A stretch of DNA of 64,000 nt from a phage: the sequence record PZ386971.1; one strand, 5' to 3'. The notes below the pieces were generated by a model. It had not been told where the DNA came from, searched no databases, and was given only the letters and a program-made list of their open reading frames with translations. Position 1 is the stretch's first letter; the number at the start of each line of letters is the position of its first letter. Shown piece by piece: positions 1 through 4,159 of this stretch. Made by a program: the position numbers and the translations under genes.

Positions 1-2211
1 ATGGCGTATCAGAAGCGTGATGTAGAATACGCCCCACTCAAGACGGGGTTTAAGACAGAAGACGTCAGACTGCGTATGGACCAAACGTTCATGCGCAAGC
101 CGTCTGTGCGCGCTCCTCGTGTGGAGTTGATGCTAACAGATGAGCAGGAATCGGAGTTCGTCGAGTGCGCGATGGACGCCCATTACTTCGCCGCCAACTA
201 CTACAAGATCACGACCATCGATAAAGGCTTCATCCTCTTTGACATGCACGATTACCAGAAGCAGTTGTTCCATGACTTCCAGGACTATCGATTCAATGCG
301 GTCGTCCAGGCTCGTCAGTCTGGGAAATGTGTAAAAGGTGACACGCTTGTCACAGTTTACGATACTCTCAGCCAAGAGCAGTTGCTCCTGACCATAGGGG
401 AGCTTCACAGCCGCTTCGAGGACGTCAACCACGCTGTGCCGCTGAATACCATTGGCAACCATGACAAGTTCGTGGACAGCCGCTTCGGCAAACGTTACTT
501 TGTGCAATCCGATAGTGGTTGGGTTCCGGTTATCGCAGCGCATAAGACGAAGAAATATGCGGAATTCGTTATTGTGACTGTTACTGGGCGGCGAATTAAC
601 GTGGCCGACGAACATATATTCTTCACTCCGGAAATGAAGGAGATATTTGCCAAAGACCTGAATTCTGGGTCATACATCATGACGTCAGAAGGTCCAGAAG
701 AAATCCGTGAGATTTGGCAGACTGGTGAGACGCATCACATGTATGACCTACAGGTGAAATCTAGTGATCAGCGCTACTACACCAACGGCTTCCTCAGCCA
801 CAACACGACAGTCGTGGCAGCGTTCCTGCTCTGGTATGCGATGTTCCACTCCGACAAAGAGATCGCAGTACTGGCGAACAAAGAGAAGCAGGCGATTGAA
901 ATCCTAGATCGTATTCGCAAAGCATATCAAGATTTGCCATTCTTCCTCCAACAGGGTTGTGAGAAGTTCGGTTCCACGCTGATCGAGTTCGAAAACGGAT
1001 CAAAGATCTACGCCTATGCGACATCTTCCGACTCCATCCGTGGTCGATCCGTATCGCTCCTGTATGTGGACGAAGTGGCGTTCATTGAAAACGACTTTGA
1101 ATTCTGGGAGTCTACATTCCCGGCGATTGCATCTGCAGAGACTTCACGTTGTATTCTGACCAGTACGCCGAAAGGTCAGCGCGGGTTGTTCTACGACATC
1201 GTCACCAAGGCGAACCCAGAACACCCACAATACAACGACTTCAAACTCACCGAGGTCCCATGGTATCGTGTTCCAACGTACACCAAAGATCCAGACTGGG
1301 AATCCAAACAAAGGGCGAAGCTGGGTGATGCACGTTTCGATCAAGAATTTGGCATTAAGTTCCGTGGTTCTGTGGGATCACTGATACCTGCCAAGTGTCT
1401 GGACAAGATGACCTCGAAGCTGTATCAGGAGCCGAACGAGTTCACCAAGATTTATCACGACTACGATCCTAAGCGCATCTATATGGGTATCGCAGATACA
1501 GGCAAGGGTGTCGAAGGGGATTATTCTGTGCTGACCATTATCGACATCACAGACTATCCTCACAAGATCGCAGCCAAGTATCGAAATAACACGATACCTC
1601 CAATGATGTACGCGTACACAATCGCCGATATGGGCGAGAAGTATGGAACGTGCCCGATGCTAGTCGAGACTAACAACGACGTGGGTGGTCAGGTGATCAC
1701 AATTCTATACCAGGAAATTGAATATCCCGAGATCATCTTCACTACAACAGATACCAAGGGCACAGGCAAGAGAATCGGTGGTCGCCGCCCTGAGCCTGGT
1801 ATCAATACCAACAAGAAGGTGCGCACAAACGGCTGTGCCAACCTGAAAGCCCTGATTGAACGTGAAATGCTGGTGATAGATGACCAGGACACGATAGATG
1901 AACTCAGTACATTCGTATGGACTGGAACAAGGTATGAAGCCGATGATGGTTGTCATGATGACTGTGTAATGCCCCTCGTGTTGTATGCATGGGCGGTGAA
2001 ACAAGAATGGTTTAGTGACCTCACCAACTCCAGTATCTCAGTCGACATGAGAGGACGGTTGTCTGCGATGGAAGAATCACAGATGCTACCATTTGGAGGT
2101 ATGATGTCGACGCCAGATCCTCACTCTGTGGAGAACATCCCAGGGTTCGGTGGAATTCAGGTTTATGACGACCGCTCTGGTATGTCTATGGAAGAATGGC
2201 TGAGACGGTGA
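1..2211 (+). CDS. 17: Terminase large subunit (T4 gp17-like), intein-containing
   Basis: 736-aa ORF; Walker A reads VVQARQSGK then TTVVAAF once residues 110-268 are removed, matching T4 gp17 LSRQLGKTTVVAIF; sits directly upstream of the sheath gene as in T4. Confidence 0.9.
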   Translation: MAYQKRDVEYAPLKTGFKTEDVRLRMDQTFMRKPSVRAPRVELMLTDEQESEFVECAMDAHYFAANYYKITTIDKGFILFDMHDYQKQLFHDFQDYRFNAVVQARQSGKCVKGDTLVTVYDTLSQEQLLLTIGELHSRFEDVNHAVPLNTIGNHDKFVDSRFGKRYFVQSDSGWVPVIAAHKTKKYAEFVIVTVTGRRINVADEHIFFTPEMKEIFAKDLNSGSYIMTSEGPEEIREIWQTGETHHMYDLQVKSSDQRYYTNGFLSHNTTVVAAFLLWYAMFHSDKEIAVLANKEKQAIEILDRIRKAYQDLPFFLQQGCEKFGSTLIEFENGSKIYAYATSSDSIRGRSVSLLYVDEVAFIENDFEFWESTFPAIASAETSRCILTSTPKGQRGLFYDIVTKANPEHPQYNDFKLTEVPWYRVPTYTKDPDWESKQRAKLGDARFDQEFGIKFRGSVGSLIPAKCLDKMTSKLYQEPNEFTKIYHDYDPKRIYMGIADTGKGVEGDYSVLTIIDITDYPHKIAAKYRNNTIPPMMYAYTIADMGEKYGTCPMLVETNNDVGGQVITILYQEIEYPEIIFTTTDTKGTGKRIGGRRPEPGINTNKKVRTNGCANLKALIEREMLVIDDQDTIDELSTFVWTGTRYEADDGCHDDCVMPLVLYAWAVKQEWFSDLTNSSISVDMRGRLSAMEESQMLPFGGMMSTPDPHSVENIPGFGGIQVYDDRSGMSMEEWLRR
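328..804 (+). mobile_element. Mini-intein (159 aa) inserted in the terminase P-loop
   Basis: Starts with Cys right after SGK (CVKGDTLV, block A-like); internal TGRRINVADEHIFFT (block B-like TxxH); ends YYTNGFLSHN followed by Thr (+1 nucleophile); too short for a homing-endonuclease domain. Confidence 0.75.
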
Positions 2212-2263
2212 TCACTAAATATCTTTCAAATTGAGCGAAACTCTACAGAGAAGGAATAAGATT

Positions 2264-4159
2264 ATGGCAACTCAAAGCTTCAGCGTTGCGCCGTCCGTAC
2301 AGTGGACTGAGCGTGATGCCACGCTTCAGACGTCCCCATCCGTTGTTGTTCAGGGTGCGGCTGTCGGCAAATTCCAATGGGGTGAGGCAGAACTCCCTGT
2401 GTTGGTCACTGGTGGTGAAACTGGTCTGGTGAAGAAATTCTTCAAGCCAAACGATGCAACTGCCACCGACTTCTTAGTGATTGCTGACTTCCTGTCTTAC
2501 AGCTCTGTTGCATGGGTGACCCGTGTGGTCGGTCCGGCGGCACGCAACGCTGTAACCAAAGGTCAGACTGCAATCCTTATCCGCAACAAATTAGACTTCG
2601 AAACTGCGTCCCCATCTGCGTCTATTACCTGGACAGGCCGCTATGCTGGCTCTCTGGGTAACGACATTGCTGTGAACATCTGTGACGCTGCGCTGTTCCC
2701 GACCTGGGAATTCCGTAACAACTTCGCATATGCTCCGCAGGATGGCGAGTACCATATCGCCATCGTTGACAAAGTAGGTCGCATCACCGACTCTTCTGGC
2801 GCTGTTAGTCAGGTTGATCGTATCTCTGTATCCGGTACTGCCACCGCTGCTGGTTCCATCTCTGTTGCTGGTGAAGCCGTGGCGTACACTGACGCTGACA
2901 CCCCGGCGACTCTGGCGACAAAGATCGGAACTGCGCTGACGTCTCTGTCTGAAGTATATTCTTCTGTTGTCGTGAAGTCCAACACCGTCACCGTCACTCA
3001 CAAAGCAATCGGTCCTCAGGCTGCGACTGCGATTGTTCCAGACGCGAATGGCCTGACTGCTACCGCTGCCGTCACCACTGTTGGTGCTTCCGGTACGATC
3101 ATCGAGAAGTATGAACTGGTTCAGACCGCTCAGGGTTCTAAGAAATCTGATGGATCCAATGCATACTTCAAAGACGTGATCAACGGCACCTCAAATTGGG
3201 TGTACACCTTCGCCACTACCCTGGCTGCTGGTGTCATTGAACTCGAAGGTGGTGTAGACGATTACACTGGGAACCGTGTTGCGGCTATCCAGGCACTGAA
3301 CAACGCCGAAGCGTATGATGCCAAGCCAGTGTTCGGTTTCTGTGAAGAACTGATTGAGCAGCAGGCACTGATCGACCTGTCCACCGAGCGTAAAGACACA
3401 GTGTCCTTCGTGTCTCCTCTTCGCGATACGGTCGTCGGAAACCGTGGCCGTGAGATGGATGATGTTGTGGCCTGGCGTGAAAGTCTTGTTCGCGACTCCT
3501 CCTACTTCTTCATGGATGACAACTGGGCGTATGTGTACGACAAGTACAACGACAAAATGCGTTGGATTCCGGCTTGTGGCGGCACCGCAGGTGTTTGGGC
3601 GCGCAGCATTGAAATCGCGGGTATCTACAAATCTCCGGCGTTCCACAACCGTGGTAAATACAACAACTATAATCGAATGGCATGGTCTGCGTCTTCTGAT
3701 GAGCGTGCTGTGCTGTATCGCAACCAGATCAACAGCATTGTCACCTTCTCCAACGAAGGCATCGTGTTGTACGGCGACAAGACTGGCCTGACCCGCCCAT
3801 CTGCGTTCGACCGCATCAACGTTCGTGGTCTGTTCATTATGGCAGAGCAGAACATCGCAGCCATCGCCAAATACTACCTTGGTGAGAACAACGATGCATT
3901 CACTCGTGGGTTGTTCAGCAACGCTGTCCGCCCATATATCCGCCAGTTGGCCAACATGGGCGCGATCTATGACGGGATGGTGAAGTGTGATGAGGACAAC
4001 AACACTGCGGAAGTTATCGCTGCCAACCAGATGGTTGCTGGTATCTGGCTGAAGCCCGAGTACAGCATAAATTGGGTGTATCTCGACTTCGCCGCCGTTC
4101 GCCCGGACATGGAATTCAGTGAGATCGAATCCGGTGGTGGTATCGTAGCCGCTTCTTAA
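2264..4159 (+). CDS. 18: Tail sheath protein (T4 gp18-like)
   Basis: 631 aa from ATG 2264 with AAGGAAT SD; N-terminal AAVGKFQWGEAELPV matches T4 gp18 ALAGKFQWGPAFQI; position after terminase; track ORF begins at an upstream in-frame TTG. Confidence 0.85.
   Translation: MATQSFSVAPSVQWTERDATLQTSPSVVVQGAAVGKFQWGEAELPVLVTGGETGLVKKFFKPNDATATDFLVIADFLSYSSVAWVTRVVGPAARNAVTKGQTAILIRNKLDFETASPSASITWTGRYAGSLGNDIAVNICDAALFPTWEFRNNFAYAPQDGEYHIAIVDKVGRITDSSGAVSQVDRISVSGTATAAGSISVAGEAVAYTDADTPATLATKIGTALTSLSEVYSSVVVKSNTVTVTHKAIGPQAATAIVPDANGLTATAAVTTVGASGTIIEKYELVQTAQGSKKSDGSNAYFKDVINGTSNWVYTFATTLAAGVIELEGGVDDYTGNRVAAIQALNNAEAYDAKPVFGFCEELIEQQALIDLSTERKDTVSFVSPLRDTVVGNRGREMDDVVAWRESLVRDSSYFFMDDNWAYVYDKYNDKMRWIPACGGTAGVWARSIEIAGIYKSPAFHNRGKYNNYNRMAWSASSDERAVLYRNQINSIVTFSNEGIVLYGDKTGLTRPSAFDRINVRGLFIMAEQNIAAIAKYYLGENNDAFTRGLFSNAVRPYIRQLANMGAIYDGMVKCDEDNNTAEVIAANQMVAGIWLKPEYSINWVYLDFAAVRPDMEFSEIESGGGIVAAS

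Follow-up and report, generated by a model that had tools for sequence, protein, structure and literature searches.

How can a phage package its DNA with a large terminase whose ATP-binding loop is broken by 159 additional residues? The question is raised by a 64,000-nucleotide stretch of phage DNA (sequence record PZ386971.1; hereafter the window), which opens with the gene for the large terminase subunit (TerL). Pfam matches to Terminase_6N (residues 269–461) and to the RNaseH-like Terminase_6C (residues 498–655) identify the protein as a T4 gp17-type large terminase. By megablast the source phage belongs to the Ackermannviridae and is Agtrevirus-like (Aglimvirinae); its TerL gene is 98.5% identical to those of Escherichia phages vB_EcoM-RPN242 and LHE287 and 97.7% identical to that of AV101 (Aglimvirinae). 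A preliminary description of the window had read the additional residues as a mini-intein interrupting the P-loop of the terminase, and this reading is correct: intein profiles, the predicted fold, the insertion point, the conserved catalytic residues and the published annotation of relatives all support it. The element is an ordinary one and was known beforehand: papers and annotations that describe it in close relatives go back to 2013.

The boundaries of the element can be read directly from the open reading frame (ORF). Residue 110 of TerL is a cysteine (tgt, nt 328–330), residues 267–268 are His-Asn (nt 799–804) and residue 269 is a threonine (nt 805–807); the coordinates 328–804 and the length of 159 residues given in the preliminary description are exact, and the N-terminal Cys, the terminal His-Asn and the Thr that follows all lie where it had placed them. 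Removal of residues 110–268 in silico yields ...VVQARQSGK-TTVVAAFLLW... and restores the Walker A motif, as had been proposed. The restored sequence is collinear with TerLs that are free of inteins. The alignment with Vibrio phage YC (Ackermannviridae, Campanilevirus; TerL of 583 residues, exteins ~55% identical to those of the window) reads CRQSGK/TTVVAAFLLW and that with T4 gp17 reads SRQLGK/TTVVAIFL (the stroke marks the insertion point), with zero residues between K and T. A search of a large protein collection added five metagenomic intein-free TerLs, P0015 (576 residues, 85% identity), P0016 (581 residues, 78%) and P0017–P0019, which span 73–85% identity and all read RQSGK/TTVVAAFLLWYA. 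Their neighbourhood is syntenic (gp13-gp14-gp15-TerS-TerL-sheath-tube-portal), and in their DNA the sequences on either side of the insertion point are joined without a gap. Because these homologues are collinear across GK/TT, the alignments identify the 159 residues as an insertion between the Walker A Lys and Thr and not as a built-in part of the terminases of this lineage; the contrary case, in which related terminases share the 159 residues as a conserved domain, is contradicted by YC and by the uncultured relatives (at most 85% extein identity), all of them intein-free. The K/T position of the P-loop has been called a 'classic' intein insertion site (PMC5050341). The G+C content of the insert is 49.1% as compared to 49.7% elsewhere in the TerL gene.

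Comparison with curated intein profiles, which the preliminary description had suggested as a check, matched the isolated insert to Pfam Intein_splicing (PF14890) at an E-value of 9.3e-9 and to TIGR01445 (intein_Nterm) at 25.2 bits, above the cut-off of 24.5. All phmmer matches in the PDB are inteins, the best being CatC, followed by the CDC21 intein, gp41-1, VidaL and Mxe GyrA. AlphaFold2, run on an alignment of 21 inteins, predicted one compact beta-rich HINT domain with two short helices (mean pLDDT 94.8, pTM 0.87). A Foldseek search of the PDB with this model returned 69 matches at E ≤ 1e-3, and inteins and BIL (Hint-fold) domains make up the whole of the top 50, headed by the VidaL intein with an E-value of 1.5e-10 and a TM-score of 0.83 on the target. 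Judged by the Pfam and TIGR01445 matches and by the predicted fold, the identity of the insert as an intein is far beyond chance. The preliminary description had further held that the element is too short to hold an endonuclease domain, and this is borne out by the length of 159 residues and the single HINT domain of the model; Pfam and NCBIfam searches of the insert found only intein splicing models, with LAGLIDADG, HNH and other endonuclease families absent.

To define the family we aligned the window intein with 20 further same-site TerL inteins of 150–181 residues, obtained by homologue search and 35–97% identical to it. C1, A93-D94-x-H96, D140 and S157-H158-N159 are invariant in all 21, and Cys1 is the only cysteine in the whole of the window intein. 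On alignment and model, the insert is a class 1 mini-intein that lacks a homing endonuclease; the class follows from the presence of Cys1 and of the block F Asp and from the absence of the WCT triplet of class 3. A class 3 intein is ruled out, since block F holds Asp140 instead of a Cys, the sole Cys is Cys1 and block G ends in S-H-N. Explanations in terms of a BIL domain or an intron were set aside in view of the catalytic residues and the uninterrupted reading frame. An HMM built from the 21 family members matched TerL alone within the window, with no second intein copy.

One detail of the preliminary description did not hold. It had named a TxxH block, and the expression T..H finds no match in the 159 residues; the equivalent of block B is V-A-D-E-H (intein residues 92–96, with A93-D94-E95-H96 at nt 604–615), in which only the His part of the proposed block is kept. 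In most inteins block B carries a Thr that assists the first acyl shift. Alignments with PDB sequences place a Ser at this position in gp41-1 and Cat, and Thr is common but not universal. Ala93 is invariant across the sampled TerL P-loop inteins, split members included, and on that evidence it is a trait of this intein family and does not point to decay.

We put at roughly 0.9 the probability of canonical class 1 cis-splicing, by which a precursor of 84.5 kDa, itself inactive, would yield a TerL of 66.2 kDa and a free intein of 18.3 kDa. The precursor would be translated as a single chain; an N–S acyl shift at Cys1 would be followed by trans-esterification onto the hydroxyl of Thr+1, cyclisation of Asn159 would release the intein, and a final O–N shift would leave GK joined to TTVVAAF in a terminase with an intact ATP-binding loop, the ligated junction of which would read ...ARQSGKTTVVAAF.... 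Thr+1 (nt 805–807) would act both as nucleophile in splicing and as the Thr of Walker A, and DNA packaging would be driven by the spliced TerL only. Since more than 250 viable isolates have the insert in their only TerL gene, we infer that splicing operates in this TerL, and its chemistry would be as just described. It can soundly be inferred, too, that packaging would depend on it: ATP cannot bind to a P-loop into which 159 residues have been inserted, and hundreds of isolates that have this TerL gene alone are viable. The element would be a selfish remnant that has become fixed in the enterobacterial Ackermannviridae because it could be lost only by precise deletion. Purifying selection for splicing competence would explain its persistence, and its alleles would pass between co-infecting phages by homologous recombination via the highly conserved flanks.

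Several points weigh against this account. The PF14890 match scores 35.7 bits and falls 0.1 bit short of the gathering score of 35.8, the C-terminal profile TIGR01443 gives a weak match only (11.9 bits against a cut-off of 15.6), and block B lacks the usual Thr. The Thr at position +1 is also demanded by Walker A and does not count as independent evidence. The searchable literature yielded no experiment on this or any other Ackermannviridae TerL intein. A reader could combine the missing Thr and the marginal Pfam score with the identical length of 159 residues in all enterobacterial members, and picture the insert as a HINT domain that has degenerated and no longer splices (an inactive intein or a BIL-like domain), and that is tolerated as a loop in the mature TerL or is able merely to cleave itself. 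We find this hardly credible: the residues for all four splicing steps are invariant in the 21 inteins, down to 35% identity with the window intein, and an insert that splits GK/T of Walker A is incompatible with ATP binding. If the chain were cleaved and not religated, the product of a gene that is essential and present once only would be lost. Moreover, naturally split members of the family (the Cat/AceL-TerL type and VidaL) have been reported active (PMC11766414). The features of the gene and its intein, as they follow from the splicing interpretation, are collected in the table.

Table. Features of the intein-bearing TerL gene at the start of the window (positions in nucleotides of the window)
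Feature	Position	Strand	Basis
TerL ORF, 736 residues	1–2211	+	T4 gp17-type large terminase
N-extein, TerL residues 1–109, ending in ...ARQSGK, the first half of Walker A	1–327	+	ORF; alignment of intein-free TerLs ends at GK
Mini-intein, class 1, 159 residues, TerL residues 110–268, predicted 18.3 kDa, Cys1...His158-Asn159	328–804	+	Profiles; AlphaFold2 model; homologues
Block A (C-V-K-G-D-T), Cys1 nucleophile at nt 328–330	328–345	+	C1 invariant, V2 and T6 conserved to 90% or more across the 21 same-site inteins
Hypervariable linker, intein residues ~30–46, 17 residues	415–465	+	Alignment gaps cluster; block of lowest pLDDT (87)
Block B (GRRINVADEHIFF), A93-D94-x-H96 invariant, catalytic His at nt 613–615	586–624	+	21-member alignment
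Block F (HHMYDLQV), Asp140 invariant	733–756	+	Aligns to YDL motif of Cat and gp41-1 inteins
Block G (RYYTNGFLSHN), penultimate His158, terminal Asn159	772–804	+	S157, H158 and N159 invariant; weak TIGR01443 match over residues 139–159
C-extein, TerL residues 269–736 plus stop	805–2211	+	Pfam; alignment with intein-free TerLs

The C-extein, of which Thr+1 is the first residue, holds the remainder of the ATPase and the RNaseH-like nuclease domain.

Inteins in the TerL of this phage family have been reported in the papers on Salmonella phage Maynard (2013), Mooltan (2019) and Klebsiella phage Magnus (2019; PMC6763660), and Salmonella phage Marshall (2013) has one annotated as well. The GenBank record of Mooltan (MH688040) describes an 'intein-containing terminase large subunit precursor' with an intein mat_peptide at 2001–2477 of the locus; its coding sequence (CDS) starts at 1674, which puts the intein at a CDS offset of 328–804, identical to that of the window. 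A 159-residue entry of NCBI nr under the name 'intein [Salmonella phage Maynard/Marshall]' shares 76% identity with the window intein. The gene, insertion point, length of 159 residues and catalytic residues are the same in Maynard/Marshall, Mooltan, Magnus and the window; the annotated Ackermannviridae inteins differ from that of the window by allele only, from 76% amino acid identity (Mooltan/Maynard) to 96% (maane).

The element is widespread. The 2,211-nt TerL query is covered to at least 80% in one piece, insert included, by 251 of 254 matching phage records in megablast, and these 251 are isolated, plaque-forming phages with one TerL gene each. With the intein alone, tblastn retrieved 285 records covering at least 80%, from phages of Salmonella, Klebsiella, Escherichia, Dickeya, Serratia, Shigella and Enterobacter. 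The 159-residue insert is present in almost every enterobacterial member of the Ackermannviridae in culture. Beyond this group, Vibrio phage VAP7 (Vapseptimavirus) has a 179-residue homologue at the same site, 31–36% identical depending on the alignment, and related elements occur in Campylobacter phages and in the jumbo Agrobacterium phage Atu_ph07. A protein homologue search with the intein alone returned two proteins and was uninformative on distribution, and the full-length TerL query was used instead; an IMG/VR locus search with the intein gave five near-identical loci only.

Experimental precedents come from the mycobacteriophages, several of whose TerL inteins have been shown to splice (PMC5050341). 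The TerL1-a inteins share the P-loop position and class 1 chemistry with the window intein (Kelley et al. 2016, PMC5050341), and it has been argued that both the active site and the assembly of the pentamer require their splicing (PMC5050341). Their host protein is, however, of the Terminase_1 type, whereas that of the window is Terminase_6 (T4 gp17-like), and the inteins of mycobacteriophage Terminase_6 proteins interrupt the C-motif instead of the P-loop (PMC5050341). Several mycobacteriophage TerL inteins also contain active endonucleases, unlike that of the window; the likeness drawn here concerns site and chemistry.

How the element has evolved within the Ackermannviridae can be followed from its alleles, which we compared among 12 genomes. 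The amino acid identity of the exteins to those of the window tracks taxonomy (Aglimvirinae 95–100%, Kuttervirus ~88%, Taipeivirus 87%, Miltonvirus 79%), but that of the inteins does not: the window intein is 96% identical to that of Kuttervirus maane, 76% identical to that of Kuttervirus Mooltan and only 72–75% identical to those of Ag3, EspM4VN, P46FS4 and phiD3, which belong to Agtrevirus/Limestonevirus. At the nucleotide level the window and maane share 86% of the N-extein, 93% of the intein (97–100% over nt 301–500) and 76% of the C-extein, with dS values of 1.39, 0.31 and 2.67, respectively, as opposed to 87%, 77% and 90% between the window and Ag3, a member of the same subfamily. Because synonymous sites are alike too, the similarity of the window and maane inteins is, from the pattern of substitutions, attributable to recent shared ancestry of a segment of approximately nt 290–700 and not to selection at the protein level. 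The window thus bears a 'maane-type' allele on an Agtrevirus-like (Aglimvirinae) extein, whereas most Aglimvirinae carry another allele (72–77% identical in amino acids). In Salmonella phage LPST94 (L014) the intein is chimeric, with an N-half of maane type and a C-half of Mooltan type. These patterns indicate that intein alleles are exchanged between phage genera by recombination, even though the inteins are free of endonucleases. The route could be either plain recombination or one helped by a free-standing endonuclease, an ambiguity to be set against the mechanism proposed above. In Dickeya phage phiD3 (Limestonevirus; L017, 809–1687) a free-standing homing endonuclease gene with a NUMOD3 motif lies between TerS and TerL, immediately ahead of the TerL that bears the intein; no counterpart occurs at that position in AV101, maane, Mooltan or Ag3. 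The phiD3 endonuclease could promote gene conversion of the adjoining intein region.

For the intein dN/dS is 0.05–0.20, and for the exteins, compared between and within closely related genera, it is 0.006–0.04. These ratios show purifying selection on the intein, much weaker than that on the exteins, and fit an element that must fold and splice. The same selection, together with the fixation of the intein in essentially all cultured enterobacterial Ackermannviridae, could also be invoked for an intein that is kept as a regulator, whereby conditional splicing (triggered by temperature, redox state, metal ions or some factor from phage or host) times or gates the onset of packaging. Possible sensor roles of P-loop inteins have been discussed by Kelley et al. 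(PMC5050341), and the atypical Ala of block B could slow the first splicing step. Fixation is nonetheless equally expected for an endonuclease-free intein that sits in an essential motif and can be lost only by precise deletion, and outside its catalytic blocks the intein evolves 5–10 times faster than the exteins, which folding and splicing alone would explain. An internal disulphide trap is impossible with one Cys only, and the existence of intein-free relatives with 73–85% identical exteins and the same gene order makes the intein dispensable for this type of terminase. We judge a regulatory role to be quite unlikely. The 'potential conditional control point' of the preliminary description finds no support, given the lone Cys of the intein, the existence of intein-free relatives and a sequence that otherwise holds no hint of regulation. 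A related and more speculative idea joins the swapped alleles to the Ala-for-Thr exchange in block B and supposes that splicing is slow or condition-dependent, the maturation of TerL serving as a timer, checkpoint or delay for packaging; we think this unlikely, though if true it would make the intein more than a frozen selfish remnant.

Contiguity, and with it the predicted cis-splicing, sets the window intein apart from the atypically split TerL inteins. AceL-TerL, GOS-TerL, the consensus 'Cat' (PDB 6DSL) and VidaL (PDB 6VGV) occupy the same P-loop site; Cat (CatC) is the best PDB match by sequence, with YDL...YYTNG..SHN aligned, and VidaL is the best by fold. The atypically split AceL-TerL and GOS-TerL inteins are encoded by two genes and splice in trans, with an N-terminal half (IntN) of 25–37 residues (PMC11766414). 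The window intein, by contrast, lies in one uninterrupted ORF and has a short linker at their split point. An exhaustive HMMER scan over 1.84 billion representatives gave 699 matches at E ≤ 1e-3 and 312 at E ≤ 1e-10, and many of these (hundreds) are C-terminal halves of TerL that open with a segment corresponding to approximately intein residues 46–159 and continue into the TerL C-extein. Their N-termini follow the pattern M..LS..V.RKFI.....V.D.E..TD.GW.. and their inteins end in ..YYTNGILSHN/TT... The TerL of Atu_ph07 (L008, 1983–4174) consists of two adjacent CDSs broken inside the P-loop intein, the first of 123 residues with the end GRQLGK/SVHKST... and a Ser1 IntN of ~45 residues, the second of 602 residues with the C-terminal intein half (IntC) and the C-extein. 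AceL-TerL and GOS-TerL, natural and atypically split TerL inteins, are built in this way. By these alignments the window intein is a contiguous, cis-splicing member of a TerL P-loop family that also holds naturally split inteins with a short IntN. The TerLs P0045, P0086, P0111 and P0124 are likewise encoded by two genes split in the P-loop intein, with a short IntN and a long IntC.

The linker of the window intein coincides with the site of length variation, with the split point of the split inteins and with the site of nested endonuclease ORFs in metagenomic relatives. In two metagenomic TerLs (P0054 and P0063; loci L025 and L026) the same-site intein is apparently 443–447 residues long, the extra ~290 residues being of low complexity in the TerL frame. 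Another plus-strand frame encodes an HNH+NUMOD3 endonuclease at 1763–2689 (+) of L025 and a 294-residue ORF with the motif '...EYNGDFWHANP...' at 1865–2749 (+) of L026, and at both loci both frames are open over ~900 nt. A canonical in-frame endonuclease was considered for these two inteins and rejected, as Pfam finds none in frame and the ORFs that resemble endonuclease genes are read in another; a group I intron was rejected after Rfam gave no match. The loci look like cases of a homing endonuclease gene nested in the linker or split site of the intein, the TerL being either contiguous or split there. Dassa et al. reportedly described in 2009 a 'fractured gene', in which the halves of a split intein are parted by a free-standing homing endonuclease gene. 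The two loci resemble this arrangement, with an endonuclease-like ORF at the linker position, whereas the window has no such ORF and a linker of 17 residues. A different association occurs in the TerL of Vibrio phage VP-1 (P0059), in which a P-loop intein of 179 residues is accompanied by a Pfam GIY-YIG match at residues 506–589, in the region expected to hold the nuclease domain; the match suggests that genes have fused here or that another mobile element has been inserted.

The additions to what was known are modest, namely the kinship with split TerL inteins, a purifying selection much weaker than that on the exteins and the exchange of alleles between genera, and they leave the current understanding unchanged. 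For annotation, the gene is best recorded as an 'intein-containing terminase large subunit precursor' with mat_peptides. A fast-evolving and horizontally exchanged intein that is left in the sequence distorts TerL phylogenies and protein clustering of the Ackermannviridae. Conversely, the combination of inter-genus exchange and intragenic chimeras without an endonuclease renders the large and well-sampled family Ackermannviridae a handy natural data set on the persistence and movement of mini-inteins, and a contiguous relative of the AceL-TerL and VidaL split inteins could interest protein engineers.

A search for tRNA genes in the window found none. Position 1 of the window is the ATG of TerL, and the small terminase gene therefore lies outside it; in relatives the two genes overlap by ~20 nt at the start of TerL, and several GenBank relatives have the start of TerL annotated 39–59 nt further downstream.

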